Of a DNA stretch of 64,000 bases, positions 14,155 through 63,991 are shown piece by piece. Position numbers and translations under genes: made by a program. The notes under the pieces were generated by a model. That model was not told the DNA's origin. It did not search any database and worked only from the letters and a program-made list of their open reading frames with translations. Origin of the DNA: Opitutales bacterium. GTDB lineage: Bacteria > Verrucomicrobiota > Verrucomicrobiia > Opitutales > PNEW01. The DNA lies in contig CBDCNV010000002.1 in the NCBI GenBank assembly GCA_965219535.1, forward strand, positions 2,154,981-2,218,980, written 5' to 3'. Position 1 is the stretch's first letter. Each line of letters opens with the position of its first letter.

Positions 14155-14217
14155 AAAACAAAAGTAAAAGGAGCAGCAGCCAATAAGCTTATAAATGATG
14201 GAGCTTTGTCTTCGTTT

Positions 14218-14416
14218 GTCATTGCGAGGAGCAACGCGACGCGGCAATCCAGGCAAATATTCAATGTGTTTACGAAAGCAAGTCTTCGTTAAGATTCACG
14301 AAAAAATGTAAATGAAAATGATATAGCGCTAGCATATTTAATGAGAAATATAGGAGATCGGTTAATTCAATATTCCTGGATTGCCGCGGTCGGCTTATAA
14401 CCTTCCTCGCAATGAC
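14218..14416. repeat. inverted pair of gtcattgcgagg...gcaatccagg arms enclosing an AT-rich core
   Basis: Left arm 14218-14253 and right arm 14375-14416 (cctggattgcc...cctcgcaatgac) belong to the same arm family as the GIY-YIG element at 59215. Confidence 0.8.
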
Positions 14417-14432
14417 AAACTAGGACGATGTC

Positions 14433-15110: not shown

Positions 15111-15382
15111 ATCTATCTTAAATGGTGAAGCCAGAAGGCTTATTATTTTATAATAGCGTCCTCAAAAAAATATTAACCCGAGGACACTGAGGCCACAGAG
15201 TATAAGAATAATAGTCAGCGCTTTTTTTTCCTGCTGAGTCAGCTGCCAGGGCATGTGTGAAATAATTAATAGTTTATCTTAATCCGCAAGGTTTTCTTTA
15301 GGGGATACAGGTTGCCAGATGCGAGATGCAGAAGGAATTGGGAGTGAACAGTAATCAATTATCAGCTATTTTCGCTTATCTT

Positions 15383-15752
15383 GTCATTGCGAAAGAGGCG
15401 CAGCCGACTGCGGCTACCGAGCGCAGCGACATCTTCCATTCCAGGAGGGCGACAAAACGCTTTCGACATTCCCCTGGATCGCCACGGCTGAACAGCAGCC
15501 TCGCAATGACAAGACGAGAATTATTCTATGCGTGTTTTTCTGCCGGGCCTGGCCAGCGGGTCTCGCAATGACAAAGTAATGAACAGGAAGCGTGTTTTAT
15601 ATATCCTCTAATTGATTACCCTTTATTGTCATTGCGAGGAGTGAAGCGACGAAGCAATCCAGGGGGTTGACAATACGCATCAGGCATCTCCCTGGAATGG
15701 AAGGTGTCGCTCCGCGGCTGCGGGATTCGGTAGCGTCATCACCAACTCGCAA
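15383..15752. repeat. cluster of at least five arms of the gtcattgcgagg / ctaccgag...cgacatcttcc family
   Basis: Arms at 15383-15445 (+), 15473-15510 (-), about 15553-15572 (-, partial), 15628-15663 (+) and 15691-15752 (-). Confidence 0.8.
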
Positions 15753-15760
15753 AATTATTC

Positions 15761-28534: not shown

Positions 28535-28855
28535 GTTGTTTATAGAATAGGTTTAAGACGATTGTACCCTAACTATAGCTAAGCATTCTCGAGTGCTGTG
28601 GAGTCGTGTGAGGGTTTTAATGAGCGATCAAACATCCTTTGGCACAGCTTTTATTATATCTGGATCCTCTGACTTAACTGACTTAAACATGCGCACGAAC
28701 AAAAGGGTCAAAAGGTCAAAACATTGGATGATGCAGGAGGGTTAGATTGTAATCAGCCGCCTACGCTTCACTATGGCGTTCCAAGGTGGACAGTGATCAG
28801 TTGCCGTCGTCCTACAGTGGTGAATTTAAATCTGATCACATTTGCCTCTCCTCTT

Positions 28856-29040
28856 GTCATTACGAGGCGTGCGGGAATTCATTTGAATATCCTTCTTAAA
28901 TCCTCAGAATCCTTCTCGTGAACCCCTATTGGAAAGACTTGAGTGGAGATTGGTATGAGTAGGCACAATGAATATTCGTCTGGAATGGAAGATGTCTCCC
29001 GCGACCGCGGGATCGGTAGCTTCGCCTCGCTCGCAATGAC
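28856..29040 (+). repeat. gene-less derivative of the GIY-YIG element (degenerate left arm, last ~20 codons of the nuclease gene, long right arm)
   Basis: 28900-28962 reads ILRILLVNPYWKDLSGDWYE-stop, against IALIEAENPHWKDLSGDWYS-stop in the intact gene. The right arm is 28979-29040. Confidence 0.8.
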
Positions 29041-29051
29041 AATTTAAAAAA

Positions 29052-30290: not shown

Positions 30291-30570
30291 GATTCATCAC
30301 GAAACTGAAAATAGATCACTAATCAATAGGATTTGCCCTATAGAAGAATTAAAACATGACAGACTGCAGAGCAAATCGCTGAAGCCGAACGAAGAGCCGA
30401 GGATTGGCTGAGTAAGCACCAGTGATCGGACCCCGTTATTCGAACCAGTTTAAGTGAGAGAAGTACCAAGTGTTAACGGATTATTGACCTGTCCCCATAA
30501 AACTGGACCAGCAAAGATTTAGTCTGGCATGGGTGGAAAACCTAATAAAAAATAGGAGAAAGAACCACCC

Positions 30571-36066: not shown

Positions 36067-36210
36067 AACCTATACCTCAGGGTCAAACGTAGAATTTAAA
36101 TATACTCTGTAACGGGTCTCAGTAGTCGATTGATTCATGATGCATGCTGCAGTATTCAGGATGTCATGGGGTAGGGGGTCGGATTGCAGAATGTACGAAA
36201 CCGACATTCC

Positions 36211-36271
36211 CCTGGAGTGGAAGATGTCGCTGCGCTCGGTAGCCACGGCTGACAAGCAGCCTAGCGATGAC
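36211..36271 (-). repeat. solo long arm of the gtcattgcgagg family
   Basis: cctggagtggaagatgtcgctgcgctcggtagccacggctgacaagcagcctagcgatgac. Confidence 0.75.
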
Positions 36272-36302
36272 AAGGTATTTCAATCGAAAAACGGCAATCG
36301 TA

Positions 36303-48146: not shown

Positions 48147-49498
<1,352 letters not shown>

Positions 49499-49762
49499 TT
49501 ATCCTTATTATTTATATTTTCAGGTTTATAGCTGAATTACTTATTCAATTCCAGGGCCGTTGCCTCTACGGTGGTCGAATTCAAGGGTATTACTGATAGA
49601 TAGGAAATTAAAAGCGTGAATTTATATTTTCTAATACTAAATGCAAGCAAGTTGCCAAAAAATTCATGAAGAGGAGTTACCTATAAGTAAAAACGAAAAC
49701 TTCGATCAGAATAACTTTAACTACACAACAGCTATAAAGGTATAAATCTCTTCGTCTGAATT

Positions 49763-50031
49763 GTCATTGCGAGGGAGGCTATCAGCTGACCGCGGCTACC
49801 GAGTCCCGCAACTACGGGACGACATCTTCCATTCTAGGCGAATAGTCATTGTGCTTACTCTTACCAGTCACATGGTAAATCTTTCCAATGAAGGTTCGAC
49901 TTTTAATCAAAACATTACTCATCTGAGGATTAACCTTAACATCTGCGGGTCTACATAACGAAACAGACATCCCCCCGAGTGGAAGATGTCGCTGCGCTCG
50001 GTAGCTTCGTCGCTTTACTCCTCGCAATGAC
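49763..50031 (-). repeat. gene-less derivative of the GIY-YIG element (two long arms plus last ~11 codons, reverse orientation)
   Basis: Arms at 49763-49838 and 49975-50031. 49861-49896 (minus strand) reads NLHWKDLPCDW-stop. Confidence 0.8.
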
Positions 50032-50082
50032 AATTGTGACGATGACTATGATAACCGTGATCCACCCTTTTTATATTTTCTC

Positions 50083-50107
50083 TGGAGGGCCACGCTCCGT
50101 CGTGGCC
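50083..50107 (-). repeat. short hairpin repeat, second copy
   Basis: tggagggccacgctccgtcgtggcc is the reverse complement of 10110-10134 with 1 mismatch. Confidence 0.7.
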
Positions 50108-50143
50108 ACGGAGAAGCACGAAATATAATTTTAAAGTTATTCA

Positions 50144-50357
50144 GAGACGAAGACGAAGAGTGATTCGATTTATCTCTAATTTAAATCTTTTAATGCAAGG
50201 TGGAGCGGGCTGTCCCTAGCACGCTTCTTCTATTACGACTAAATCAAACGCGCTAGGGATCAGCCGTCGCCAAGGCTATGTCGGACAGACACCGCGTTCC
50301 ACCCTGATATTGTATTAATTAACTGACGAAGACACAGACGTGGACGAAGACGAAGAT
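50144..50357 (-). repeat. composite MITE-like repeat, copy 3 (both gacgaagacgaag termini present)
   Basis: agagacgaagacgaagag at the left, gacgaagacgaagatt at the right, central arms at 50198-50225 and 50250-50304. Confidence 0.75.
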
Positions 50358-50378
50358 TATTATTATCCATCCCTTATA

Positions 50379-51665
50379 TCAATAAACACCCTTTGCTTTT
50401 TTAATAGCTTCTGTCGTTAAATCCGGTTCCCAGGGCCACAGACAATAGCCGTCAAATCCATTATCCCTGAAAGCTTGAAGTTTTTCCCCAAGGCTTTTCA
50501 AGTCATGATTATATATCCAGGCATAGGGATACATGGGGAGTTTCCCTTTCAGTTTTTGGAGATGTTTCATCTGACGGTTGACAGTAGAGAGGTTAAAGGT
50601 ATCTGAATAAAACATATCTTCATCTTTGGGGTCGCATGATTGATAGACTTCTGGTCCCGGACCGAGATCCGTGAGTTCATGAATTACTTTTCTTAACTTT
50701 ATGGTGTCCCCTCGCTTGGAGGCATCAGTTATTTCGTCGGCAACAAGGGGTATGATGGAACCCGTGAGGTATTCGGGAAACTTGGGAGCTACCCAGTCGT
50801 AAAGCGAATAAAGTTTGTCGTAATCCGTGCCGAACGACTTCGACAATGAGGGTAGATAAAACTCCAACCCGATCTTAAGATCAGGCAGGTGATCTTCTGC
50901 AGCTGCCCGGCATGCTTTAGTTACTTTTTCAATGAACTGTGTTAATGCATTCATGCGAAAAGTAATCCATAGTTTCAAATAGGGTCTTTCCGTGATAAAA
51001 TTTAAAATACCAGTGGATGTATAATCGAATGGTTGGCTGGAGCCATTGCCAGTTGAAGTCAGACTCTGATATAATGTCCCCACTTCTTGTTTCATTTTAT
51101 CAAAGTCGATGCCTTCAGCTTCTGCTTTATCTCGACAGTGGTCACAGAAACATACGAAGAGGTCCTTGAGCCCATTGCGCGGCCACACCGGATATTCGAC
51201 ATGATTCAAATGTACGCTATCAAGCGATGACCATGAAGCTACGGTTTCACGCATCATCGTCTCGCCCCATTGCAGGACAGCGGGATTATTTGGACAACCA
51301 TGCATTATCATGGAATTCGACTCTCTGTTACTTTTGGTAACATCAACCATTCTGAGTTTACTGAGGTCCGGGCTTAAGGGATGAAGGGGGCAAATATTAC
51401 AAGTGACATGGAACCCTTTTTCTTTTGCCAGACTGAGAAAACGCATTATCGACGCATAGTCTTCGGGCGAGACCTTCTGAAAGCCCGTGCCTTCAGATGC
51501 ATTGACGGAGGGAAGGATTAATGGGGAGCCTTTTTGTCCCCATTTCCAGTAGTTATTACTAAGGATGAGAGTATTAATAGCGGTCCACGAATTGAGATCG
51601 TCGAGGACGCGCTCCGGCTCTTTTAGAGCGACCGGCCAATGCATGAACAAAGCTTTTACCGACAT
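50379..51665 (-). CDS. hypothetical protein (possibly a TIM-barrel glycoside-hydrolase-like fold)
   Basis: 428-aa ORF in an operon with the MetE-like and PHP genes. The CFCDHCRDKAEAEG segment resembles GH-like family 10 proteins, but the assignment is weak. Confidence 0.4.
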   Translation of the reverse strand: MSVKALFMHWPVALKEPERVLDDLNSWTAINTLILSNNYWKWGQKGSPLILPSVNASEGTGFQKVSPEDYASIMRFLSLAKEKGFHVTCNICPLHPLSPDLSKLRMVDVTKSNRESNSMIMHGCPNNPAVLQWGETMMRETVASWSSLDSVHLNHVEYPVWPRNGLKDLFVCFCDHCRDKAEAEGIDFDKMKQEVGTLYQSLTSTGNGSSQPFDYTSTGILNFITERPYLKLWITFRMNALTQFIEKVTKACRAAAEDHLPDLKIGLEFYLPSLSKSFGTDYDKLYSLYDWVAPKFPEYLTGSIIPLVADEITDASKRGDTIKLRKVIHELTDLGPGPEVYQSCDPKDEDMFYSDTFNLSTVNRQMKHLQKLKGKLPMYPYAWIYNHDLKSLGEKLQAFRDNGFDGYCLWPWEPDLTTEAIKKAKGVY

Positions 51666-51709
51666 GACCGCATTATTTTTCTGAACAACCTCTATCGCGG
51701 TTGAATTAA

Positions 51710-52903
51710 TTAAATATCTTCACTGATTTTCTCTTTGGGTACTTCAGTGAAACTAAATCGTTCATCCGCTGCCCGGCATGGTGTCTCGGGTAAACCGAGT
51801 TCGCGTTTTACGGTATTCGCTCCCATCACCGTTGAGACACATTTATAAAATGCGATTCTTCGGGAAATACCTTCGCGACCAAAACCGCAATCAGAGGAGA
51901 GAATCAATCGCTCGGGAGGAATGTATTCCAAAGCTTTTCGGATGAGATCGGCTACCAGATCTGGGGGTTCAACGACGGTATTAGTATGATTAACGACACC
52001 GATCCCAATCTTTTTGGGTGTATCATGCTTTGCGATATGTTCGAGATCTTTCCCAAAAGTACTGGCACACTCAAAAGTAATAACATCTGCATTCATGTTA
52101 TAAAAATGCGGTATCGCATTTTCGTAAGATGGCGGCACCCAGGAACCACGCTGCTGATTAGGATTTCCCCAACAGGTATGGACCCATATCTCGGCATCCA
52201 GTCCTTCAACTTCACGATTGAAAGCCTCGGTAAAGAATTCCAAATCTTTATCTTTAATATTATCCCTCAGGGCGAGGAAATGATGCATCGGTTCTTCAAC
52301 TTGAATGAGCGTGCAACCGGATGCCACCATCGCCTTGTACTCTTCATTCATTATCGCGCTGAGTTCCATGATGAGTTCCCTGTCAGACGGGTAAAATTTA
52401 TTCCAGATCATCGCATTAAGACTCTGGGCACAGACAGCACCAAATTTAACTGGTTTATGCGTCAATTTCTGGGCGGTTTTCCAAATAGCATCATAGTGGA
52501 GAGGACCGCGGGTTACCTTATCTACGAGGTAAGGCGCCTGATAAGCTTCCTGTACCTCCCACATGATTCGGCCGGGTGCGATTCCGTGGCTGGACATGAA
52601 TCCTTTTGCCAAATCGGAGAAGCCACTAAAACCGCCCAATCGTTCAAGGACATAGAAGAACCAGGATTTCCCACCCACCTGGAGATCAAAGCGAGTGTCC
52701 CCATCAGTCAGAATATCCAGACCTGCTGTATCCTGATCGGTTAAGATTGTAGCGACAGCATCGAGGTACTGTTCACGATAGAGGCTGTCACCCATCGCCT
52801 CTTTGAAAGTGCGTCCACGTAAAGACTGGTTAAACCAGTTCGGTTTAGGATAAGAACCGGTCGTAGTAGTGGGAAGGACAATGTCCTGAGTCACTTTAAT
52901 CAT
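51710..52903 (-). CDS. cobalamin-independent methionine synthase (MetE C-terminal domain)-like methyltransferase
   Basis: LPTTTTGSYPKPNWF start, later HTCWGN and SDCGFG zinc-ligand-type motifs. The ATG at 52903 is preferred over the TTG at 52933. Confidence 0.7.
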   Translation of the reverse strand: MIKVTQDIVLPTTTTGSYPKPNWFNQSLRGRTFKEAMGDSLYREQYLDAVATILTDQDTAGLDILTDGDTRFDLQVGGKSWFFYVLERLGGFSGFSDLAKGFMSSHGIAPGRIMWEVQEAYQAPYLVDKVTRGPLHYDAIWKTAQKLTHKPVKFGAVCAQSLNAMIWNKFYPSDRELIMELSAIMNEEYKAMVASGCTLIQVEEPMHHFLALRDNIKDKDLEFFTEAFNREVEGLDAEIWVHTCWGNPNQQRGSWVPPSYENAIPHFYNMNADVITFECASTFGKDLEHIAKHDTPKKIGIGVVNHTNTVVEPPDLVADLIRKALEYIPPERLILSSDCGFGREGISRRIAFYKCVSTVMGANTVKRELGLPETPCRAADERFSFTEVPKEKISEDI

Positions 52904-52976
52904 TACAGTTACTTTTACCAAGCGACCACTCAAGGGTCTGAATCAATATTACCCTAAATCAAAGCCGGGGTATTGA

Positions 52977-53855
52977 TTATTCAAGGAAAAAGGGTTGGGT
53001 CCATGCATTTCTCTCTCCCTCACCCCAACACTCAAACCGCAGATAACGGGTGAATTCGGATACATCCACTTTAATCGAACCGCTATCACTCCAGGCTACG
53101 CGTTGTCCATTTAGAGTTATTCCCACGATTCTGCTGGCATTTTCACATTCGATGACAATTTCGGTTCCTTCCACTTGTATGGTATTAATGACAACGCCGG
53201 TAGAACAATAAAAGCGACCATTTTGCAATGAACCCAAAATGTTTTCCGGGCTGGATGAATCGACATAAACGACATTCCATCCTACGCCGACATCAACATT
53301 TCCCGGCATGAAATGAGCATCATCATGGGCATATCCCCATAGGTGACGTCCTTCCGAGAGGAGCATGTCCCATTTGTTTGTAGCGTAAGGGCTGCCAGTG
53401 CATCTCCCTACCGTTGCGTTAAAAATTTCAAGGCCCACATAATCCGTCCATTGCTGCAAAAGTTCGAGTGGACAAAAATTAAAATTATAATCCAGGTTCG
53501 GATGGGCAACGACGACGAAACCCTGGGTAGATTTTGCTTCATCGAAGACTAACTGTCGGTCGGCATGTGGTTCAATTCGGCGGTCACCATTTACATGCAC
53601 TAAATGCGGGCCATCCTTTGAAATTTCATTTCCAGGTAGGAGCACGAGACCTTTATTGTCGATCTTTTCGTAGGTTTCATGTCCGGTGAAAATATCATGA
53701 TCGGATATTGAGAGAAACTGGTAACCGAGATTAGCGTAAGTATTAATTACCTCCTGCATCTCGCAGGTGCCATCACTGTTGGTTGTGTGGGTGTGCAAAT
53801 TTCCTCGAATCCAAGTGCCCCCTTTTAATTTTTCATAGGGATGTGTTATCTGCAT
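52977..53855 (-). CDS. PHP-domain metal-dependent phosphoesterase
   Basis: NLHTHTTNSDG, SISDHD, VAHP and HDDAH metal-ligand motifs. Confidence 0.8.
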   Translation of the reverse strand: MQITHPYEKLKGGTWIRGNLHTHTTNSDGTCEMQEVINTYANLGYQFLSISDHDIFTGHETYEKIDNKGLVLLPGNEISKDGPHLVHVNGDRRIEPHADRQLVFDEAKSTQGFVVVAHPNLDYNFNFCPLELLQQWTDYVGLEIFNATVGRCTGSPYATNKWDMLLSEGRHLWGYAHDDAHFMPGNVDVGVGWNVVYVDSSSPENILGSLQNGRFYCSTGVVINTIQVEGTEIVIECENASRIVGITLNGQRVAWSDSGSIKVDVSEFTRYLRFECWGEGERNAWTQPFFLE

Positions 53856-54130
53856 AATAGGTAATTTTCGATATTAATATAACTCAATTAATCGCTTTTA
53901 AGCCCAGTTTGTTTATAGATAAGAAGTCATCGTTGTAGTGGGAAGCATCATCTCACGGGTTATTTTTATTTTCTCTAACCCTAATGCCAAAAGGAATACA
54001 ATGATTATTCAAGGAAAAACTAATGCGAGGAACAATCGACATTCGCATATCGCCAATCGTAAATTGCATTGATCCCCATTGACTTAAAAATTTAACAGCC
54101 ACATAAATTAACGCAGAGGTATTAGTTAAG

Positions 54131-54994
54131 ATGAAATTAACTGAAGCGCAGATGGATTTTTACCGTGTTTTTGGGTTCTTAATCTTTCGGCAGCTCTTAT
54201 CACCTGATGAAATGGTTATCTACAATCGCGAGTTTAATTCAGGCATAGAGGAGTGGCTCAAGCATTATAAGGGGAAGCAAGTGAAAGGGCATAGGCGTAA
54301 AGTCTATTTAAACGAGTATGGTTTGGATTATCAATTATGTGTGCCTCTAATGGATCATGACACCCCGTTCATATGTTCTCTTCTGGATGACCACCGTCTT
54401 GTCGATGCTGCCGAACAACTCTTAGGCACTGATGTTCTTGGAATATGGTCTGATGCGGCCTGGTTTTATGGTGACACGCAATGGCACACGGACCAGGTTA
54501 CCTCGAAATACCGGGCTGTGAAATTCGCAATTTACCCGGATCCCCTCAATGAAAGTAATGGGGCATTGCGTGTGATTCCCGGGTCCCATCACGATTCTTT
54601 CTCAAAACAAATAAACGATGAGACAGCCGGAATAGATACTTGTGAAAAGTACGGAATACACCCCGATGAAATGCCGGCCTATGTCTTCAGATTAGAACCC
54701 GGGGATGTTGTCGCTTTTGGCAATCCTCTTTGGCATGCTTCATATAATGGGGGTAAACGTCGAAGACTGGGAGTTGTCATGTTTACGGAGGATCCAAAGA
54801 CACCCTATGCGTTAGATAATATTCAACGCATTATGCATAATATGCATAAACGTCAGGCCGTTCATTTTGGTGGCCAGTTCTACCCCGACTACTGGCGTAC
54901 TATCGACAATCCACGTCATCAGTACTGGGTGCGTCGCCTCAAAGAACTGGATATGCTCGAGACCGCAGAGGCGTCTGCATATAAGGAAGATTAA
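54131..54994 (+). CDS. PhyH family Fe(II)/2-oxoglutarate oxygenase
   Basis: LTEAQMDFYRVFGFLIFRQLL, WHTDQ, RVIPGSHH, LWHAS. Confidence 0.85.
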   Translation: MKLTEAQMDFYRVFGFLIFRQLLSPDEMVIYNREFNSGIEEWLKHYKGKQVKGHRRKVYLNEYGLDYQLCVPLMDHDTPFICSLLDDHRLVDAAEQLLGTDVLGIWSDAAWFYGDTQWHTDQVTSKYRAVKFAIYPDPLNESNGALRVIPGSHHDSFSKQINDETAGIDTCEKYGIHPDEMPAYVFRLEPGDVVAFGNPLWHASYNGGKRRRLGVVMFTEDPKTPYALDNIQRIMHNMHKRQAVHFGGQFYPDYWRTIDNPRHQYWVRRLKELDMLETAEASAYKED

Positions 54995-55041
54995 ATTCTT
55001 TGTATCTAAGAAACTAATATACTATCAAGGATAGGATCGGA

Positions 55042-55821
55042 ATGACACTGAAAGAAAAAGTAGCTATCGTCACGGGGGCAGCGAGCGGGATCGGTCGGGC
55101 CACCGCGCATAAATTTACTGAGGAAGGGGCCAGGGTCGTGGCGGTTGATATTAATGAAGGGGGTTTAAAAGAAACTGTAAATACAGGGTCAGAAAAAGGG
55201 AAAGGCTCATTACAATCTATAACCACCGATGTTAGTTCTTCGGAACAGGTTAAAGCACTCGTGGAATCTGTAGCATCCCAGTATGGACGCATCGATGTTA
55301 TTTTCAGCAACGCGGCGATCATGAAAGATGGTTCAGTTATTAATTTAACGGAAGAGAATTGGGACGCGTTGTTTGCGGTTAATGTGAAAGGTGCATTCCT
55401 TTTAGGGAAATATGGAATTCCCATAATGATAGAATCAGGGGGTGGGTCTTTTATTATCACCGCGTCGGTGAACAGTTTTTATGCGGAATCAGACATCGCC
55501 GGGTACTGCGCTACTAAAGGCGCAACCTTGCAATTGACGCGGGCGATGGCTGTTGATCACGGTCCGGATAAGGTGAGGGTGAACTGTATCTGCCCCGGTT
55601 GGATTGAAACGCCGATGTCGATGCCGTATTTAACTGAAAATCCTGAGGGACGTGAGTTCGCGGGTAAAATTGCTCCAGCCGGTCGAATAGGACAGCCGGA
55701 AGACGTCGCCGCAGTAGCCTTGTTCCTGGCCAGTGATGAAGCTGCTTTTGTCACCGGTGCTGCCTACAATGTTGATGGGGGATGGACGGTAGGCATGACG
55801 AAGGCGCTCGCGCTAATTTAG
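55042..55821 (+). CDS. short-chain dehydrogenase/reductase (SDR)
   Basis: TGAASGIGRA, NAAI, YCATKGA catalytic YxxxK. Confidence 0.9.
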   Translation: MTLKEKVAIVTGAASGIGRATAHKFTEEGARVVAVDINEGGLKETVNTGSEKGKGSLQSITTDVSSSEQVKALVESVASQYGRIDVIFSNAAIMKDGSVINLTEENWDALFAVNVKGAFLLGKYGIPIMIESGGGSFIITASVNSFYAESDIAGYCATKGATLQLTRAMAVDHGPDKVRVNCICPGWIETPMSMPYLTENPEGREFAGKIAPAGRIGQPEDVAAVALFLASDEAAFVTGAAYNVDGGWTVGMTKALALI

Positions 55822-55861
55822 AGTTTAATTCGATTTTTTAGTTTTCGAACCTAAAACAATT

Positions 55862-56593
55862 ATGAGACGCGGCTGGTTAATTGGGTGTTTTATTTTATTC
55901 GTCGTTTCTCTCTCGTTATTCGTTGCACGCGATTATTCGACCTCCGATGGAGAGGCAGATACTTATACTAAAGCGCGTCATCAGATGGTAGAGACGCAAA
56001 TGGAGCGACGAGGGATATTGAATCCCGAGGTTTTAAGAATAATGGGAAAAGTTCCCCGTCACGAGTTCGTCCCCTTACTCTATCGATGGCAGTCATACGA
56101 TGACCACCCCTTACCGATTGAGAAAGGGCAAACGATCTCGCAACCGTATATTGTTGCTTTAATGACCGAATTGTTAGATCCAGAACCCGCAGATCGAATT
56201 CTTGAAATTGGCACGGGGTCGGGATACCAGGCTGCAATACTCGCTGAATTAGTCGATACGGTCTACACGATTGAAATTATTCCCGCCCTTGCCAAAAGCG
56301 CGGCGGAAACTTTTAAGCGCTTAGATTATAGTAATATTCAAGTAAAAGCAGGGGATGGTTATCTCGGATGGCCGGAAGCGGCACCTTTTGATGGGATCAT
56401 CGTAACCGCTGCGCCTCCCTACCTTCCTCAACCCCTGGTTGAACAGTTAAAAACGGGTGGAAAGCTGGTAATTCCTGTCGGCGATATTTATCAGGAATTA
56501 AAAGTTTATACCAAAACAGATGAAGGGTTAGAAACTAAAGATATAATTCCCGTTCGATTCGTTCCCATGACCGGTAGAGCACAGGAAAAGTGA
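55862..56593 (+). CDS. pcm: protein-L-isoaspartate O-methyltransferase
   Basis: VPRHEFVP, QTISQPYIVALM, ILEIGTGSGYQAA, VTAAPP. Has an N-terminal hydrophobic segment. Confidence 0.85.
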   Translation: MRRGWLIGCFILFVVSLSLFVARDYSTSDGEADTYTKARHQMVETQMERRGILNPEVLRIMGKVPRHEFVPLLYRWQSYDDHPLPIEKGQTISQPYIVALMTELLDPEPADRILEIGTGSGYQAAILAELVDTVYTIEIIPALAKSAAETFKRLDYSNIQVKAGDGYLGWPEAAPFDGIIVTAAPPYLPQPLVEQLKTGGKLVIPVGDIYQELKVYTKTDEGLETKDIIPVRFVPMTGRAQEK

Positions 56594-56647
56594 TATATTG
56601 TAATTCTATTATTGCCCAATTGCGATAGTTCATATGATTAGACTTAA

Positions 56648-57829
56648 GTGAGTGATAGTTTACAGGATCAGTTAAATGCGGCAATACAGGTAGAGCGCTT
56701 AGTCGATACGGCGGTAAAAATCATTGGAATTCCCAGTCCCACATTAAGTGCAAAGTCCGCAGCTGATAAACTGGCAGAAATACTGGAGAAGGATGGATTT
56801 AAAGTCGAGCGGCCCGATGCCAATTGGCCTGAGTCTCCGGCGGTGTTTGTGAGTTACGATTCTGGTCAACCCGGTAAAACTCTACAGTTTAATGGTCATC
56901 TGGATACCGTTCATTTGCCGTTTGTTGAGCCCCGGGTAGATGACGGTATGTTGTACGGAAGTGGCGCTTCGGATATGAAAGGGGGAGTTGCCGCGATGTG
57001 TGAAGCACTGCGTATCCTTCGCGACACGGGATTGTTGAAATCAGGAAAAATACTATTGACTGCCCATGACCACCATGAAGCCCCCTGGGGGGATGGCCGA
57101 CAGGTTAAAGCCCTGATTGAAGAAGGTTATGTCGGGGACGGTGTTCTGATCCCAGAATACCTTGCACATTGTTTGCCCGTCCTGGGGCGAGGCATGGCGA
57201 TTTTCGAAGTCAGTATCACGCGAGAAGGAAAACCGGTGCACGAAGTCCAGGGAGGTTTGGAGCAGCCCTCTGTCATAGCAGCAGGTGCGGATCTCATCAC
57301 CCGGTTTATGGAATTAGATAAGCAATTAACAAAATTGACGCACCCGTTAGGTGCACGTGAAAGTATTTTTATCGGGCAGGTAAGTTCAGGAGAAATTTAT
57401 AATCAATCACCGACTGAATTTAAACTCCATGGCACCCGTCGTTGGCTCCCCGGTACTTTAAGGGATAATGTTGAAAAGCAATTTCAAGATATACTTAACG
57501 AAGTAGGGAAAGAAAAAGGTATAAAAGTGAAGGGTGAATTTAATTCCCTCTTAGATCCTTATGAACTCAATGAGGATCATCCGTTGTTGCCGGCTTTTCA
57601 GTCAGCTTACGAGGAAATTGCAGGCCAATCTCTTCCGCTGGGGGCCAAACCATTTTTGGATGATGGGAATAACTTTATCGCGAAAGCAGGGATTCCGGCG
57701 ATAACCCATGGGCCCGATGCAATAGGGGCACACACCGTAAATGAAGAAGTTTCGATTGACGAGTTGAAGAGGGTGGCACTTACTTATGCTTTAACGGCTA
57801 TTCTATTTTGTGGTAACGGCGATGAGTGA
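56648..57829 (+). CDS. M20-family metallopeptidase / deacylase (ArgE/DapE-like)
   Basis: GHLDTV, GSGASDMKGG, HGPD...AHTVNE motifs. GTG start. Confidence 0.8.
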   Translation: MSDSLQDQLNAAIQVERLVDTAVKIIGIPSPTLSAKSAADKLAEILEKDGFKVERPDANWPESPAVFVSYDSGQPGKTLQFNGHLDTVHLPFVEPRVDDGMLYGSGASDMKGGVAAMCEALRILRDTGLLKSGKILLTAHDHHEAPWGDGRQVKALIEEGYVGDGVLIPEYLAHCLPVLGRGMAIFEVSITREGKPVHEVQGGLEQPSVIAAGADLITRFMELDKQLTKLTHPLGARESIFIGQVSSGEIYNQSPTEFKLHGTRRWLPGTLRDNVEKQFQDILNEVGKEKGIKVKGEFNSLLDPYELNEDHPLLPAFQSAYEEIAGQSLPLGAKPFLDDGNNFIAKAGIPAITHGPDAIGAHTVNEEVSIDELKRVALTYALTAILFCGNGDE

Positions 57830-59189
57830 TATAATTACTGAAAAACAAACCCTCGAAGAAAGATATCTAAAGCAGATTTTTGTCCGCTCTCAGATGACGG
57901 AATTTGTAAAGGACCCTTTCGTAATGAGTAGTTCAGATGGGGTTTATTATACGGATATTGATGGAAAACGTTACCTTGATGCCATAGCAGGAATTTTTGT
58001 CGCTTCGGTTGGCCATAATAACCGACGGGTGATTGAAGCGATTAACGACCAGTTGGACAAAATGTCCTTTTCCCCGATCATACACGGCACGAATGCATTA
58101 GCTGTTCAATTAGCCAATTTACTGGCAGAAATTGCCCCCGGTGATTTAAGCGCGGTCAAATTCTGCTGTGGGGGATCGGAGGCAAACGAAACCGCTTTTA
58201 AAATGGCGCGCCAGTATCATAAACTTAACGGTAATCCTAACAAGTATAAGGTAATCTCGCGCTACCAGTCCTGGCATGGGTGCACAATGGGGTCCCTGTC
58301 CGCGTCCGGACTAACTTCACGTCGTGTTGACTCCGAGCCGCTGGCGGCAGGATTTGTTCATGTATTCCCTCCCTATTGCTATCGCTGTCCTTTTGGTAAG
58401 GAATACCCCAGTTGTAATATCACCTGTGCCGGCTTGATTGAAGATACGATTATGATGGAAGATCCTGAGACCGTCGCCGCGGTCATTGTTGAGCCGATCG
58501 GGCATACCGGTGGCATCATTGATCCTCCCCCTGAATATCTTCCCCAATTACGAGAATTTTGTGACCGACATAACGTGCTTTTGATTTTTGATGAAATTAT
58601 TACCGGAATGGGGCGCACGGGAGAAATGTTTGCTGCTGAAACATTCGGAGTGATTCCTGATGTGATTTGCCTGGGCAAGGGTTTATCTGGTGGATACATG
58701 CCACTATCCGCGGTGCTATGTCGAAGACACATTGCGGATAAATTCTGGGGAGATGAGGAGACAAATCCGGGCTTGGTGTCGGGTCATACATATGAAGGTA
58801 ACCCCATCGCCTGCGCGGCTGGATTGGCGACGATAGCGGAGATTATCGAAAAGGATTTGTGCGCAAATACCCGTAAAGTGGGCAGCCATTTGCGCGATGG
58901 TCTGGAGGGGCTTCGCAAGCACGAAATTATCGGCGACATTCGAGGGAAGGGATTGTTTTTTGGTGTCGAGTTTGTTCGTGATCGGGTGACAAAAGAAAAG
59001 TTTTCGGATGATATTCCGATTGCCACATTAATTGGAAAACGCGCCTTAGAAAAAGGACTCTTGCTACGCTACGATCCTCATTGGTTATCAATCGGCCCCC
59101 CTCTAATCCTGACTGAAAGTCAGGCCGATGATATTGTTTCTATTTTGGATGCTAGTATAACAGAAGTGCTGCAGGAGATTAAAAGCTAG
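57822..59189 (+). CDS. class III (omega) aminotransferase
   Basis: GSEANE, DEIITGMGRTG, LGKGLSGGYMPLSA (PLP lysine region). The ATG at 57822 overlaps the upstream stop (ATGAGTGA). Confidence 0.85.
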   Translation: MSDIITEKQTLEERYLKQIFVRSQMTEFVKDPFVMSSSDGVYYTDIDGKRYLDAIAGIFVASVGHNNRRVIEAINDQLDKMSFSPIIHGTNALAVQLANLLAEIAPGDLSAVKFCCGGSEANETAFKMARQYHKLNGNPNKYKVISRYQSWHGCTMGSLSASGLTSRRVDSEPLAAGFVHVFPPYCYRCPFGKEYPSCNITCAGLIEDTIMMEDPETVAAVIVEPIGHTGGIIDPPPEYLPQLREFCDRHNVLLIFDEIITGMGRTGEMFAAETFGVIPDVICLGKGLSGGYMPLSAVLCRRHIADKFWGDEETNPGLVSGHTYEGNPIACAAGLATIAEIIEKDLCANTRKVGSHLRDGLEGLRKHEIIGDIRGKGLFFGVEFVRDRVTKEKFSDDIPIATLIGKRALEKGLLLRYDPHWLSIGPPLILTESQADDIVSILDASITEVLQEIKS

Positions 59190-59214
59190 AGTGTAATTGC
59201 ATCGCGCCCCTATT

Positions 59215-59639
59215 GTCATTGCGAGGAGCAACGCGACGCGGCAATCCAGAAATTTTGGATTAACCATTGCCACATATAAACCGATTTAATACATGTGCGC
59301 AATGTGTATTACGTTTACATCCTCACCAGTAAGCGTAATGGAACACTTTACACTGGTGTCACCTGTAGTTTATTTCGTCGCTTATGGGAACATAAAAATA
59401 AATTTAAGGAAGGGTTTACCAAGAAATACAATATACAAAGGCTGGTATATCACGAATCCTTTTATGATATTCAAAATGCTATCGTACGTGAAAAGCAAAT
59501 TAAAGCCGGATCGAGAAAAAAGAAGATTGCTTTAATTGAAGCAGAGAACCCCCATTGGAAAGATCTGAGCGGAGACTGGTATTCGTAAAACAATGACGAT
59601 TCGCCTGGATTGCTTCGTCGTGATGCTCCTCGCAATGAC
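59215..59639 (+). mobile_element. candidate GIY-YIG nuclease element: single gene bracketed by 35-bp inverted arms
   Basis: The left arm 59215-59249 and the reverse complement of the right arm 59604-59639 agree at 31 of 35 positions. The arm family is dispersed across the window. Confidence 0.6.
59295..59588 (+). CDS. GIY-YIG nuclease family protein (small UPF0213/COG2827-like)
   Basis: 97 codons with a GTG start. YVYILTSKRNGTLYTGVT...RRLWEH...E.AIVREKQIK are typical GIY-YIG motifs. Confidence 0.85.
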   Translation: MRNVYYVYILTSKRNGTLYTGVTCSLFRRLWEHKNKFKEGFTKKYNIQRLVYHESFYDIQNAIVREKQIKAGSRKKKIALIEAENPHWKDLSGDWYS

Positions 59640-59666
59640 AAATGGGGAGGCACGTGCCCTCCATTA

Positions 59667-60506
59667 TCAGGTGCGAACAGCATGTCTGAAGAGTGGTTTA
59701 GCTATATCTGGAAGACTTTCAAAAACTTCCAGAGGCATCGGGGGGTATTGGATAACCCTTTGCTTGGGGTCATCATTAACAATTTTCATTTCTGTCGATC
59801 CTGGTAGGTATATATTCTGATTCATCCACCAGGGCGCGTATCGGGCAACCATGGAGACACGGGACTTATCCGTTTTATTCGCTCCGCCCGCATGCCACAT
59901 ACGACTGTCAAAAGCGAGGACGCTACCCGCAGACCCGGTCACCTGTATTTCATCGGGAAAAGGTTCAAAATTTGGTTCTTCACCATAGGAAGGATTTGTA
60001 TTTCGTTTATGGCTGCGCGGCACGAGGTGGGTCGCGCCGTTTTCCTCTTTAAAGGGGTCAATCATCCAGATTGTGGTAATGGTCATTAAAATTGTATTAA
60101 GGTATGGACTTTCAATATGCCCCGCATAGTTTCCCGCGAACGGTTGATCCCCATGCCACTCCCTACGATCGCTATGGGGTATATTATTCGTGGTAGAAGT
60201 GGCACAAACGCGAAAATGAGGGCCGAATAAATTTTCTATCAAGGTGGTCATTCGGGTGTCAGCGAGATATTCGGCAAAAGACGGAATATAATTTATGGAA
60301 GAAGCGCAATAATTGGTAATTCCATCAGTGACTCGAGTGAAAGGTTTGTTTTCGGGTTCACCTTGTCCGATAGTGATTAATTCGTCTCTGATAGGAGCAA
60401 TACGCTCTTCTGGCACTACATCCTCAATTAAACACCACCCCTCATCACGGATCTCTGCTGCCAATGACTCCGTCGATTTTACCGCTTTGGTTTTTGTTTC
60501 CATCAC
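59667..60506 (-). CDS. PhyH family Fe(II)/2-oxoglutarate oxygenase
   Basis: WHGDQ, HLVPRSH, MWHAGGAN. Confidence 0.8.
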   Translation of the reverse strand: MMETKTKAVKSTESLAAEIRDEGWCLIEDVVPEERIAPIRDELITIGQGEPENKPFTRVTDGITNYCASSINYIPSFAEYLADTRMTTLIENLFGPHFRVCATSTTNNIPHSDRREWHGDQPFAGNYAGHIESPYLNTILMTITTIWMIDPFKEENGATHLVPRSHKRNTNPSYGEEPNFEPFPDEIQVTGSAGSVLAFDSRMWHAGGANKTDKSRVSMVARYAPWWMNQNIYLPGSTEMKIVNDDPKQRVIQYPPMPLEVFESLPDIAKPLFRHAVRT

Positions 60507-60721
60507 TGCATCCTCATATTTATGCGTTTTGCTCTTTGATCAAGATAATACACAGGGACGAAATTATACCCATCTTCAAATTTTACAAGTCCTCAAAATG
60601 CGAGATATTAGTGTAATAAACCCTTTGTTGAGGTTAAAGTTTATTGATGGGTATAGTTTAATGGAGAAGTAATTATGCTATCGACATGGCGAGAGTTTAA
60701 GGTATACTAATAATTGATTAT

Positions 60722-61456
60722 GGGTCATGCCTAGAATAGACACATATCAGATGTGTAAGCTATTCTAGACAAATGAGAAATAAGTATGTACATCGTTCAA
60801 AAATTTCTGAGGCCAAATTTCGGCAGTTAGTAAAGTGTTTTAGCTTGGATATGGAAGCGTTGAAGATAGCCCAATTGACAGGATTGAATCGTAACACGGT
60901 CAACCGTTATTTGCGCTTGTTGCGGGAGCGTTTGTTGCAGCAATGTGCGCAGGCCTCGCCTTTTAGGGGGTCGGTGGAAATGGATGAGTCCTACTTTGGA
61001 GGCAAAAGAATTCCAGGGCAAAGAGGTCGGGGTGCATTCAAGAAAGTGCCCGTCTTCGGGTTGCTCAAGCGTAATGGGAAAGTCTATACCCAGGTTGTAC
61101 GCAATGTCTCCAGAGCCGCTCTGCATGCGGTGATCCAAGGGAGAGTTACTTTTGACAGTGTGCTTTATTCTGACGGGTGGCGTGCTTACAACGGCCTCGT
61201 GGATCTGGGCTATAAGAAGCATTACCGTGTCAATCACAACGACAACGAGTTTGCCCAGGGACACTCCCACATTAACGGGATTGAATCTTTTTGGGCTTTT
61301 GCTAAACTTCGATTGGCTAAGTTCAAAGGTCTTTCTCGTAGGACCTTCCAACTGCACCTCAAAGAAACTGAATATCGCTTTAACCATCGTCATCAAAACC
61401 TCCATCGTAACATCCTTAATATGTGCTTAAGATACCCTCTGTTCTAGGCATGACCC
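60722..61456 (+). mobile_element. IS1595-family insertion sequence (ISXO2-like), 735 bp
   Basis: Inverted repeats gggtcatgcctagaa (60722) and ttctaggcatgaccc (ending 61456). 8-bp direct repeat TTGATTAT at 60714-60721 and 61457-61464. Confidence 0.9.
60773..61447 (+). CDS. IS1595-family (ISXO2-like) transposase
   Basis: DESYFGGKR...GRG...VFGLLKRNGKVYT...SDGWRAYNGL...HINGIESFW. The stop codon lies inside the right inverted repeat. Confidence 0.9.
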   Translation: MRNKYVHRSKISEAKFRQLVKCFSLDMEALKIAQLTGLNRNTVNRYLRLLRERLLQQCAQASPFRGSVEMDESYFGGKRIPGQRGRGAFKKVPVFGLLKRNGKVYTQVVRNVSRAALHAVIQGRVTFDSVLYSDGWRAYNGLVDLGYKKHYRVNHNDNEFAQGHSHINGIESFWAFAKLRLAKFKGLSRRTFQLHLKETEYRFNHRHQNLHRNILNMCLRYPLF

Positions 61457-61494
61457 TTGATTATTATACTTAATTAATTGATATTTCAGCATAT

Positions 61495-61971
61495 ATGAAA
61501 AAGAGACAAGATTTTGAATCACAGGGGTTTACTTTGGTCGAGTTGATGATCGTTGTCGTTATCATCGGTCTCTTAGCCTCATTTGCCATCCCCGCTTTTA
61601 ATAGAACGAGAGTTGTTTCGCGAGGAACCGCCTTTCTAAATGATCTACGTGTATTCTCGGATGCGGCAGATACCTATATGATAGAAACTGGAGATTATCT
61701 CGAAGATTCAGGCAGTGGTTCTGTTCCCACGGGTTGGGATGCTTACATTAGCACCGCGAAGTGGACCGGGGCTACGCCAATAGGTGGGGTCTGGGATGTG
61801 GAATTGGACTCTTTTGGTATAAAATCAGGATTAGGCGTACATGGCCCTGACTTTACCTCTCAGCAGATGCAGGATATTGAAGACAGTTACGATGATGGCG
61901 ATCTTTCGACGGGGAAATTCCGGAAAATTGCCGCTGACCGTTACTATTTTATTCTGGAGGACAATCCTTAA
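61495..61971 (+). CDS. prepilin-type N-terminal cleavage/methylation domain protein (type II secretion / type IV pilin-like pseudopilin)
   Basis: QGFTLVELMIVVVIIGLLA leader motif. Confidence 0.85.
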   Translation: MKKRQDFESQGFTLVELMIVVVIIGLLASFAIPAFNRTRVVSRGTAFLNDLRVFSDAADTYMIETGDYLEDSGSGSVPTGWDAYISTAKWTGATPIGGVWDVELDSFGIKSGLGVHGPDFTSQQMQDIEDSYDDGDLSTGKFRKIAADRYYFILEDNP

Positions 61972-62122
61972 TAGGCTGATCCAACAGGCCTTGGTATAGC
62001 TGAAGCGTAACTAAGCTATCCATATTCTCACTCTTGACGGGTGTGAGATGTCTCTACATACAACAGCTAACTCCATCTTATGGGGAGCAAGTAATGGATT
62101 TTAGAGCAATTGGGAAAGATAA

Positions 62123-63388
62123 ATGTCATTGAAGAGAGCACCTGAAACCGATTTCGAAAAGGTATCTTCCTATCTGAGGAGACAAGAAGGAAAGTGTGTT
62201 AAATTCCTTCAAGGATTAATTCAGATTCCAACCGTGAATCCCCCTGGAGACTGCTATAAGCAGTGTGTGTCCTATCTCGATACAAAACTTAAATCGATGG
62301 GTATGAAAACCCAGGTCATTCGTGTCCCAATAAATGAGCAGAAAAAAGTGACACCCCACTTAATGAATTACCCCCGGTATAACTTAATTGGGAGATGGAA
62401 TACCGGAGCTGCGAAGACACTACATTTTAATGCACACTATGATGTGGTTCCTGTCTCGGGTGAATGGAAATATGGACCTTTTGTGCCGAGAGTTAAAGAC
62501 GAGTGGATTTACGGACGAGGGACAGCGGACATGAAAGGTGCAATTGCCGCTTGTTGTTTTGCCATTCAAGCGGTGAAGCAATGTAAACAATTACCACGGG
62601 TAAATTTAGAAGTGTCTTTCACTGCGGATGAAGAAACAGGCGGTGAACTGGGGGCCGGATATATTGTCGAGAAGAAGCTGGTTAATCCCGACTATGCCGT
62701 AGTCTGTGAAGGGGGTAGTGGAAGAACTGTAGGTTGCGGACATAATGGTGTGCTCTGGCTGGAGTCGGTGATTACCGGCAAATCTGCTCACGCCGCGCAT
62801 CCACATAATGGGATTAACGCCTTTGAAAAAATGTCGGCTCTGGTAGTCCACTTAAACCGTTGGAAAAAAACTCTGAAAAATCGAAGCTATGTATCACCTA
62901 ACGGACGTAAAATGCATCCCACGATAAATATAGGGGGTGTATTTGATGTCGGATTGGGGGCTAAAGTGAATACCGTTCCATCTCATGCGAGTTTTTCAAT
63001 CGATAGACGCATTATTCCCAGCGATTCCTTGCGCGATGGGGAGAGGGAAATAAAAAGAGTGATCAATGAAGCGAGGAGACAAATACCGGATCTGCGTGTA
63101 AAAACAGCAAGCCTCTTAGAAATCAAACCCTGTCTTGTTGATCACAGCAGTTACTTTCCCCAAACATTTTCACGCGTTGTTAGTTCGGTGCTGGGCGGTC
63201 GTACTCAATTCAATGTTTGTGACGGGTTTACCGATATGAATCGCTTTGTGAACAGCAAAATAATAACCGTGGGTTACGGTCCGGGGGGTAAATTAAACCA
63301 CGGGGTAGATGAGCGGGCAAAAATTCGCAGCATATTGCAAACAGCCAGGGTATATGCGAAACTGATGCTCTCGCTTGAAGAGAAATAA
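62123..63388 (+). CDS. M20-family metallopeptidase (ArgE/DapE/ACY1-like)
   Basis: NAHYDVVP, GRGTADMKGA, ADEETGG, GHNG motifs. Confidence 0.8.
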   Translation: MSLKRAPETDFEKVSSYLRRQEGKCVKFLQGLIQIPTVNPPGDCYKQCVSYLDTKLKSMGMKTQVIRVPINEQKKVTPHLMNYPRYNLIGRWNTGAAKTLHFNAHYDVVPVSGEWKYGPFVPRVKDEWIYGRGTADMKGAIAACCFAIQAVKQCKQLPRVNLEVSFTADEETGGELGAGYIVEKKLVNPDYAVVCEGGSGRTVGCGHNGVLWLESVITGKSAHAAHPHNGINAFEKMSALVVHLNRWKKTLKNRSYVSPNGRKMHPTINIGGVFDVGLGAKVNTVPSHASFSIDRRIIPSDSLRDGEREIKRVINEARRQIPDLRVKTASLLEIKPCLVDHSSYFPQTFSRVVSSVLGGRTQFNVCDGFTDMNRFVNSKIITVGYGPGGKLNHGVDERAKIRSILQTARVYAKLMLSLEEK

Positions 63389-63445
63389 TAAATGAAAAGA
63401 AGAGTTGAGCGCGGGCGCTTGTCCGATTAGCTCCGCCTATGAAAT

Positions 63446-63991
63446 TCAATTGCTGAAATCTACGGTCTTCATTAATTCGCGGACATAGCCGTTTGTTACC
63501 GAAGCATGGTTATTATCAGCCGCGTTTATTTCATTTTCGATTGCCTTAAAATCTTCATTGCAGAGTGTATCCAGAGAATCGAGCAAATTATCAAAAGTCT
63601 GTTGTATATCAGCTATACTTGATCCTTCTTGTTGTTGTATGATTTCTCTATAGTAGGATTTTAAATTCAGGCGTGGTATGGTAATTGCATGGTACCGCGT
63701 GCCGCGGACGCTGGCACTATGTCTCTCCGCAATTGAATTATAAATCTGTTCTTCATCTTGAAGCGCTTCTGCCGCCCTGAAAGCACGATCCATTTCATGC
63801 TGAGCGGTATCTGAAAACGTTTTATTTTTCTGGTCATAATCTGAGGTCATCGTATTGCGGGCGCTTCCGATAAGTCGGCTCAGATTAGCGACTTTGGATT
63901 TAACATTATCAAAACTGGACTGTATATCTTTATAATTCGCTTTAATGGACTCCGATTCCTGGTACTCCTCATCGGAATCTGATAAAATCAT
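63446..63991 (-). CDS. hypothetical protein; start may lie beyond the window end
   Basis: 181-aa ORF predicted to be mostly helical. The frame is still open from 63991 to the window edge at 64000. Confidence 0.4.
   Translation of the reverse strand: MILSDSDEEYQESESIKANYKDIQSSFDNVKSKVANLSRLIGSARNTMTSDYDQKNKTFSDTAQHEMDRAFRAAEALQDEEQIYNSIAERHSASVRGTRYHAITIPRLNLKSYYREIIQQQEGSSIADIQQTFDNLLDSLDTLCNEDFKAIENEINAADNNHASVTNGYVRELMKTVDFSN

Follow-up and report, generated by a model that had tools for sequence, protein, structure and literature searches.

Does a small nuclease gene that lies between two inverted copies of a dispersed hairpin repeat travel with them as one unit, and is such a unit of a new kind? 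The question is raised by positions 59207-59647 of a 64,000-nucleotide stretch of contig CBDCNV010000002.1 from an Opitutales bacterium (the whole stretch is called the window, and coordinates without a locus name refer to it), in which a GIY-YIG nuclease gene is enclosed by inverted arms. An earlier interpretation from the letters alone (the sequence-only reading) had taken this locus for an autonomous element with its own miniature inverted-repeat transposable elements (MITEs). Judged from sequence comparison, the locus is very probably an Ssn/SRM (Ssn-related motif) unit, in which the gene for a 97-aa single-domain GIY-YIG endonuclease is placed between inverted copies of a variant of the NTS/SRM hairpin repeat. 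What is new here is comparative evidence, which supports the copying of the gene-plus-repeat unit and of gene-less derivatives around the genome.

The ssn gene and its flanking arms

The unit consists of the following parts:

59207..59249 (+), left arm: short-type SRM-like hairpin, (TT)GTC-ATTGC-GAGGAGCAACGCGACGCG-GCAAT-CCAG, forward on the gene sense strand, assigned from the inverted repeat and the ATTGC/GCAAT covariation
59250..59294 (+), 5' spacer from the left arm to the GTG start, partly kept in deletion derivatives
59295..59588 (+), ssn gene: 97-aa single-domain GIY-YIG nuclease of the Ssn family, with Y8, Y19 and E66 present
59605..59647 (-), right arm: the left-arm module, forward on the minus strand

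Comparison of the left arm (59215-59249) with the reverse complement of 59605-59639 revealed matches at 31 of 35 positions, the same count as in the sequence-only reading, and a repeat finder extended the inverted repeat to 43 nt (59207-59249 / 59605-59647) with 86% complementarity. The 35-mer of the left arm has two exact copies in the window (the second at 14218), with 0 expected from 100 shuffles. The sole gene between the arms is the open reading frame (ORF) 59295-59588, which starts with GTG, encodes 97 aa, and matches the Pfam GIY-YIG domain PF01541 (E=5.5e-11, residues 5-77) with no further domain, in agreement with the single 97-codon GIY-YIG gene described before. The dN/dS of ssn against its orthologues is 0.14-0.18, and the gene is under purifying selection.

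Relationship to the Ssn nucleases and the NTS repeat

The Ssn family (cd10448) consists of single-domain GIY-YIG proteins of ~94 aa (Chenal et al., Nat Commun 2025, PMC11893778). The associated repeat is the NTS, CGTCATTCCCGCGMAVGCGGGAATCYRG, in Neisseria, with the general name SRM. SsnA binds the hairpin as single-stranded DNA (ssDNA) only and on one strand only, with double-stranded DNA (dsDNA) and RNA being no substrates, and its cut precedes the motif on the 5' side by a few nt (~3 nt in the case of NTS); the GTC before the palindrome matters for cutting, and the C after the palindrome for binding (PMC11893778). In N. meningitidis, SsnA lowers transformation by NTS-bearing DNA. The SRM was found nearby in 71% of homologues and on both sides in 42%, and the NTS-ssnA-NTS arrangement was likened to an insertion sequence (IS), with a parallel to IS200/IS605 and to the RAYT/REP/BIME systems (REP-associated tyrosine transposases, repetitive extragenic palindromes, and bacterial interspersed mosaic elements) offered as a domestication hypothesis (PMC11893778). 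Our literature search found no later paper on Ssn mobility. The system of the window is therefore of a known kind, published in 2025, with a lineage-specific arm variant, and this description of the Ssn nuclease and its NTS/SRM repeats supersedes the belief of the sequence-only reading that such systems were still uncharacterised.

Pairwise comparison revealed 48% identity over 88 aa, gap-free (E=4e-29), between the window protein and the 94-aa SsnA orthologue of N. gonorrhoeae, which was taken from a chromosome sequence mislabelled in a plasmid collection (L093 589-873) and has canonical NTS on its flanks. The tblastn match to this orthologue has E=5e-19 in a 7.3-Gb database, compared with the published family criterion of E<1e-10. 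Residues Y8, Y19, and E66 of the window protein align to Y6, Y17, and E64 of Neisseria SsnA, the residues mutated in PMC11893778, and R29, H33, and N85 are likewise invariant among 21 homologues. The protein family is very large, with at least 8000 matches that are typically 60-70% identical and with named examples from very different phyla; homologue length is mostly 93-100 aa, and the 97-aa single-domain protein of the window fits the Ssn size of ~90-100 aa. Three homologues (L046, L048, and L066), 57-59% identical to the window protein, have near-canonical NTS arms GTCATTCCCGCG..CGGGAATCCAG, so the arm types intergrade within one protein family. A search of NCBIfam gave only a sub-threshold group I intron endonuclease match, and PADLOC and PHROGs gave no informative family for the protein.

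The window thus resembles the Ssn/NTS system in its ~95-aa single-domain nuclease with the same catalytic residues, in its oriented flanking hairpin repeats with the edges (C/T)GTCAT...AATC(C/T)(A/G)G, in the dispersal of the repeat in intergenic DNA, and in its IS-like layout of a gene between repeats. It differs in the arm, which is ATTGC-GAGGAGC..GACG-GCAAT with a 5-bp outer stem and a purine-rich interior, in contrast to the 9-bp ATTCCCGCG stem of the Neisseria arm. It differs also in its Opitutales-like verrucomicrobial host, in a lineage-specific long arm with a 23-34-nt block, and in the remnant-bearing derivatives and polymorphic sites, which are not described in PMC11893778. Another small stand-alone GIY-YIG protein, UPF0213 (PDB 1ZG2, B. 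halodurans BH0048), is the one relative of solved structure that sequence comparison retrieves (E=3.8e-5), but it is much more distant, and Ssn (cd10448) is treated as a separate clade in PMC11893778. Taken together, the alignments to Pfam, PDB, and SsnA are enough to fix the fold of the window protein.

Association of arms and gene across phyla

We fetched 80 homologous loci from >15 phyla and compared the upstream flank of each gene with the reverse complement of its downstream flank. The best inverted repeat in most loci is GTCATTGCGAG-(variable)-GAAGCAATC(C/T), with a median score of 34.5 compared with 18 for shuffled flanks, and variants of this module are GTCATTCTGAG..GAAGAATC, GTCATCCTGAG..GAAGGATC, and GTCATTCCCGCG..CGGGAATCC. 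Flanks of 300 bp or more on either side of the gene are available for 73 loci; an arm lies within 300 bp of the gene in 69 of these, and the layout of the window (forward arm upstream and reverse arm downstream) is present in 46. Arm density is 5.7/kb near the gene and 0.63/kb further off, a ~9-fold difference.

The arms were further analysed for covariation by anchoring only on the 5' GTC-N5-G and checking whether the next 5-mer has its own reverse complement downstream. The outer stem pairs are ATTGC/GCAAT (93%), ATTCT/AGAAT (97%), ATCCT/AGGAT (83%), ATGCT/AGCAT (89%), and ACCCT/AGGGT (75%), with off-diagonal combinations mostly at most 10%. The outer stem 5-mers thus covary, indicating that each arm is a hairpin with conserved unpaired edges. 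These results support the conclusion that the arms belong to the gene, as homologous genes from many phyla are enclosed by this module too. Other copies without arms, which had been named as a test of the sequence-only reading, were not what we found, since the paralogs L084 copy B (see below) and L086 also have arms.

Three observations concern single loci of this sample. In an uncultured bacterium (L009 1296-2350), ssn forms a tandem array of the type arm(-), arm(+), gene, with a 426-bp period and 99% identity between copies; the array is uninformative on the ends of the unit. In the N. gonorrhoeae locus (L093 380-1060), the first NTS 3' of ssnA is forward on the gene strand and begins 1 nt past the stop codon, in contrast to the reverse arm in the window and most loci, so the arm geometry is not uniform across the family. 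Some database proteins run on through the arms, with tails LLDCFVAETLRNDG or GLLRRFAPRNDG (N-terminus of P0022 and C-terminus of P0116), indicating that arm translations contaminate protein predictions.

Arms and arm types in the window

A census of the window was made by searching for the core (T)GTCATTGCGAGG and inspecting degenerate copies. It yielded 16 arms including the focal two, and therefore 14 further copies rather than the ~17 counted in the sequence-only reading; every one of them sits between ORFs, consistent with the intergenic or gene-end positions reported there. The further arms are:

14217+ and 14417-: arms 1-2
15382+, 15511-, and 15573- (fragment): arms 3-5
15627+ and ~15755- (degenerate long type): arms 6-7
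28855+ (truncated) and 29041-: arms 8-9
36272- (solo long type): arm 10
39606+, 39854-, 49762+, and 50032-: arms 11-14

The longer arm variant CTACCGAG...GACATCTTCCATTCCAG, also noticed earlier, is borne out by 7 and 9 motif matches in the window compared with 0.2 expected. The long-type arm is composed of the short type and a 23-34-nt block, CTACCGAG..(variable mini-hairpin)..CGACATCTTC, placed between GCGG and CA(A/T)TCCAG, and its presence removes GCAAT, one half of the stem. In the full set of fetched loci, only the clade of the window has this block. Orthologous arms may be of either type: the left arm of ssn, of the short type in the window, is long in the related locus L084, and the left arm of the derivative E49k (below) is long in the window and L090 and short in L091. 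The blocks lie at the following positions:

Window: 15413-15444, 28980-29020, 36212-36243, 39633-39664, 39802-39833, 49795-49837, 49974-50005
L084: 9915-9955 and 13944-13984

Gene-less derivatives of the unit

Alignment of the arm pairs to the full unit revealed four elements with both termini and parts of the 5' spacer and/or the last 5-13 ssn codons:

49762..50033 (-), E49k: two long-type arms and the last 11 ssn codons; in L090 and L091, not in L084
39605..39856 (+), E39k: two long-type arms and the last 13 codons; not in L090, with homology stopping at its left end
28854..29043 (+), E28k: truncated left arm, last 12 codons, and long right arm; breakpoint as in E39k and E49k
14216..14419 (-), E14k: two short arms with unit positions 1-59 and 357-441; a deletion derivative

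Three ssn remnants of 11-13 codons each were detected by tblastn at 28921-28956 (NPYWKDLSGDWY), 39743-39781 (NPHWIDLSGNWFS), and 49896-49864 (NLHWKDLPCDW). E28k, E39k, and E49k have one deletion breakpoint, with the remnant beginning at codon ~84/85, and a homologous interior, indicating that a single derivative without the gene has been multiplied in its turn and occupies at least three loci. E14k holds the first 59 and the last 85 nt of the unit, including the last ~5 ssn codons. The alignments support the view that all four elements arose from the full unit by internal deletion, in a relationship like that of MITEs or REPINs (REP doublets forming hairpins). The three gene-less pairs of the sequence-only reading were therefore recovered, with remnants of 11-13 codons instead of the 11-20 stated, and E14k was added as a fourth.

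Microsatellite-like tracts of CTTCGTC / GACGAAGAC flank E49k (window 49745-49760, 50140-50160, and 50320-50360) and fill the empty L084 site (L084 510-545 and 645-670), and their sequence is similar to CGACGAAGC within the arm. These tracts could reflect a target preference, microhomology, or decayed arms.

Filled and empty sites in related genomes

Loci L084/L085 are ~80% identical to the window and syntenic with positions 49240-63880. L084 carries the orthologous unit (copy A) and an inverted copy B, 3.2 kb off, after an M20 peptidase gene. Copies A and B have a single amino acid difference and dS=0 and are near-identical from TTGTCATTGCGAGG to CTCGCAATGACAAGAG; at either end the identity breaks off 2-6 nt beyond GTCATT, at positions that bracket the cut reported for SsnA, ~3 nt 5' of NTS (PMC11893778). 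The site of copy B corresponds in the window to a 57-bp intergenic stretch with no arm.

E49k is present in L090 (92.5% identity) and L091 (88%) and absent from the orthologous spacer of L084. The exact site that E49k occupies in the window is empty in L090, where the element lies ~370 bp away in a rearranged spacer. L090 does not contain E39k, whose left end is exactly the point where the 98%-identical homology breaks off. Presence/absence differences were thus observed at three sites in ~25 kb compared, among genomes 80-92% identical, which contradicts an absence of insertion polymorphism, named before as grounds against mobility. For the elements at 14-16 kb and 28.9 kb, the homologues found (L088 and L089) are not syntenic there. 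The unit TTGTCATT...AATGACAA acts as a discrete module that varies in copy number, and the comparisons as a whole make it well supported that the unit and its derivatives have been copied as discrete arm-bounded modules.

Other differences were seen at or near these elements. In the left arm, the inner loop reads GAGTAATACGACG in one L084 copy and GAGCATCGTGACG in the other (9885-9915 and 14017-13985), with ~5/8 positions differing between copies A and B, which looks like localised hypervariability or patchy conversion. Breaks of synteny or homology (39603/39605 and 28831/28854) lie at, or at most ~25 nt from, arm-pair elements. L090 contains ~3.9 kb of other content (~11068-15022) beside the E39k site. 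A 96.5%-identical block common to the window and L088 (2137-3770) stops 23 nt from E28k. Window positions 21275-22600 and 28831-30495 are 96-97% identical to L088 (Opitutales, ERZ28669063 ctg27034) in a non-syntenic context, and most genes common to the window and L088 are far more diverged than these blocks, which suggests recent transfer or rearrangement, including a BNR/sialidase-like gene.

Possible mechanism of copying

Judged by its homology with the Neisseria and Wolbachia enzymes that have been characterised, the window protein would bind the folded arm in single-stranded form alone, and solely in the GTCATT...AATCCAG orientation. Its cuts would probably precede GTCATT by a few nt, the top strand being cleaved just left of 59214 and the bottom strand just right of 59640. 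Both predicted cuts fall just outside the unit, and such Ssn cuts may define its ends. The unit may then spread by nuclease-initiated copying that depends on host repair, rather than by classical transposase chemistry, and interrupted repair synthesis might give rise to the internally deleted derivatives. Genome comparison supports the mobility of the unit and its derivatives; for the mechanism, with the nuclease as its putative driver, this course of events is inferred.

We propose, as a tentative reading that we put at less than an even chance, that arm-ssn-arm might be an active autonomous mobile element of unproven class, in which the cuts of the 97-aa GIY-YIG ssDNA nuclease would set the ends and the doublets would be MITE-like derivatives. 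The autonomous-element and MITE proposal of the sequence-only reading is reasonable and withstood all three of the tests named with it; it has gained from the deletion derivatives, the polymorphism, and the arm-bearing paralogs, and has lost its claim of novelty for the system.

Several points weigh against the main explanation, an Ssn/SRM unit with copied derivatives. The published SRM pattern, HGTCWYN(0-2)YYVSBRHN(0-5)WNVSBRGN(0-2)RNCYNB, has 0 matches in the window; it matches the canonical NTS and cannot match arms of the ATTGCGAG..GCAAT type. That type is the commonest in our sample (~202/674 anchored sites), and we take the missed pattern as a limit of the search heuristic and not as exclusion from the family, the conserved edges GTCAT / AATCCAG and the covarying stem being common to both. 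The window arms fold weakly (-6.1 and -2.7 kcal/mol), not better than shuffles, so the support for arm structure comes from covariation and not from energy. Long-type arms, though deprived of the GCAAT half of the stem, are arms of copied derivatives. Neither a target-site duplication nor a conserved target motif was found at six elements, and at each empty site just one of the two junctions is exact, because the intergenic DNA around it is diverged or rearranged. The focal ssn gene is syntenic in L084, whose genome is ~80% identical, which makes the focal copy old and not newly inserted, and its dN/dS marks it as functional. Since the two strands are each predicted to be cut at a different end, same-strand excision of the IS200/IS605 type is not expected. 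To our knowledge, the GIY-YIG domain is a hydrolase with no known strand-transfer, covalent-intermediate, or joining chemistry.

Alternative explanations

A rival account, which we consider a serious possibility though still short of probable, is spread by homing-like recombination, in which Ssn would cut arms exposed as ssDNA (at forks or in incoming DNA) and host recombination would repair the cut from other arm-bearing copies. Sequence between two arms, whether or not it includes the gene, would in this way be copied or lost. GIY-YIG homing endonucleases act so, and I-TevI and the Seg proteins resemble the window system in their catalytic domain, in their selfish-gene logic, and in spreading via host repair after cleavage. 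They differ from it in having two domains and in cleaving dsDNA, at alleles that are without the intron or gene, whereas in Ssn a separate domain for DNA binding is missing and cleavage is limited to ssDNA beside a hairpin. The arms provide 35-70 nt of dispersed homology, and copies A and B of L084, with the same gene and a differing inner loop of one arm, are as patchy conversion predicts. Variation of orthologous arms between long and short and the synteny breaks at elements (39603/39605 and 28831/28854) point the same way, and dRS3/NTS repeats were proposed as recombination substrates in Neisseria (PMC11893778). However, E49k and L084 copy B lie at sites that are arm-less in the other genome, and homing-like spread leaves their arrival there unexplained. 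With regard to mechanism, host-repair-dependent copying (homing or conversion) fits better than an enzyme-only cut-and-paste of the IS200/IS605 kind: the patchy A/B differences, the long and short states at orthologous arms, and the elements at synteny breaks favour the former, and the opposite-strand cuts, the lack of joining chemistry, and the half-stem long arms in derivatives disfavour the latter.

Rather doubtful is the explanation that the unit is an autonomous transposon of a new class, with Ssn excising and re-inserting it, and the derivatives in trans, via ssDNA intermediates in the manner of TnpA or the RAYT/REPIN systems. IS200/IS605 elements (TnpA, a Y1 enzyme of the ssDNA 'peel and paste' type) are like the window in that a small enzyme acts on ssDNA, that each end has a subterminal hairpin, and that target-site duplications are missing. 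RAYT/REP/REPIN systems are like it in a single- or low-copy nuclease gene between its own hairpin repeats, in inverted doublets dispersed intergenically, and in recognition of folded ssDNA. The duplicated unit ends at predicted Ssn cut sites, a gene-less family with one breakpoint occupies at least three loci, filled and empty sites occur among relatives, target-site duplications are missing as in ssDNA transposons, and the IS-like layout had been remarked on (PMC11893778). The strands tell otherwise: both IS200/IS605 cuts are on one strand, which the enzyme rejoins covalently, whereas the forward arms of the window are inverted and lie on opposite strands, so that a single strand would be cut once and not twice. 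The GIY-YIG enzyme hydrolyses DNA with no known covalent intermediate or joining step, and in fold and chemistry it is unrelated to the RAYT enzyme, an HUH Y1 tyrosine transesterase. The absence of a conserved target motif and the long arms without the hairpin reportedly needed by the enzyme also argue against such a transposon, as does the only in vivo role demonstrated, restriction of transforming ssDNA (PMC11893778). REPINs are without RAYT gene remnants, in contrast to the window doublets with their ssn remnants. Membership in RAYT/REP itself was rejected, because the only domain of the window protein is GIY-YIG and not HUH/Y1, and the likeness is one of analogy only.

It is unlikely, though conceivable, that the system is fully domesticated, with the arms serving as genome-wide marks for ssDNA restriction or another host role, the turnover being noise of indels and recombination, and the unit as such having lost its mobility or never possessed it. 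The focal gene is syntenic at ~80% identity and under purifying selection, neither PHROGs nor PADLOC places the protein in phage or known defence families, and the role shown in Neisseria is modulation of transformation (PMC11893778). Such noise does not readily account for a unit-exact duplicate with dS=0, for derivatives with a common breakpoint at three loci, or for several presence/absence differences within ~25 kb.

Rfam at the gathering threshold found only a tRNA in the whole window, and at E<=10 only a chance match at the locus; a terminator scan of 59100-59750 gave no terminator-like site, with promoter-like matches at background level, so the arms are not the ordinary terminators that the sequence-only reading had allowed for. 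That generic REP-like or terminator palindromes flank the gene by chance, which would agree with the intergenic position of the arms, often at gene ends, and with the short palindrome in each, is so improbable that we regard it as effectively refuted by stem covariation and by the cross-phylum association of an oriented module with homologous genes (>15 phyla, ~9-fold local enrichment), the Neisseria counterpart being moreover a demonstrated enzyme binding site (PMC11893778).

Significance

Ssn/NTS has been characterised as an enzyme and a modulator of transformation, and the mobility of NTS-ssn-NTS units was left as a hypothesis (PMC11893778). The Opitutales-like lineage offers a natural test bed for it: its ssn gene is functional, a sister genome holds a recent duplicate with exactly the extent of the unit, and there are derivatives of one breakpoint and filled and empty sites. 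The published association rates of the SRM (71% and 42%) are probably too low, since the commonest arm type of the 80-locus sample escapes the published pattern. If the nuclease were shown to drive the turnover, a GIY-YIG ssDNA nuclease would join the few enzymes that build REP- or MITE-like repeat populations in bacteria. If the autonomous-element reading were true, Ssn/SRM across bacteria would be a new superfamily of ssDNA-dependent mobile DNA and not merely a host ssDNA restriction system.

Other arms, repeats, and a neighbouring gene

The window contains further arms outside the unit and the remnant-bearing derivatives:

15381..15512 (+), arm doublet of ~130 bp, no gene remnant (left long, right short)
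15561..15575 (-), solo arm fragment
15624..15755 (+), second arm doublet of ~130 bp (left short, right degenerate long type)
36208..36273 (-), solo long-type arm

Two more repeat families, CTGGAGGGCCACGCTCCGTCGTGGCC and GGTGGAGCGGGCTGTCCCTAGCACGC, occur together as a composite block of ~200 bp, of which CTGGAGGGCCACGCTCCGTCGTGGCC is a hairpin that also forms inverted doublets in L090; no gene was found to go with them. Their positions are:

Window 10110-10287 (-) and 50082-50224 (+): CTGGAGGGCCACGCTCCGTCGTGGCC/GGTGGAGCGGGCTGTCCCTAGCACGC composite block
L084 ~9766-9790, 10382-10409, 13453-13476, and 14052-14076: CTGGAGGGCCACGCTCCGTCGTGGCC/GGTGGAGCGGGCTGTCCCTAGCACGC repeats around the ssn copies

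An ORF for an IS1595-family transposase (224 aa, PF12762) lies at 60773-61447 between a PhyH gene and a pseudopilin-like gene. It is not at the orthologous position in L084/L085 and is an independent IS insertion polymorphism beside the ssn unit.

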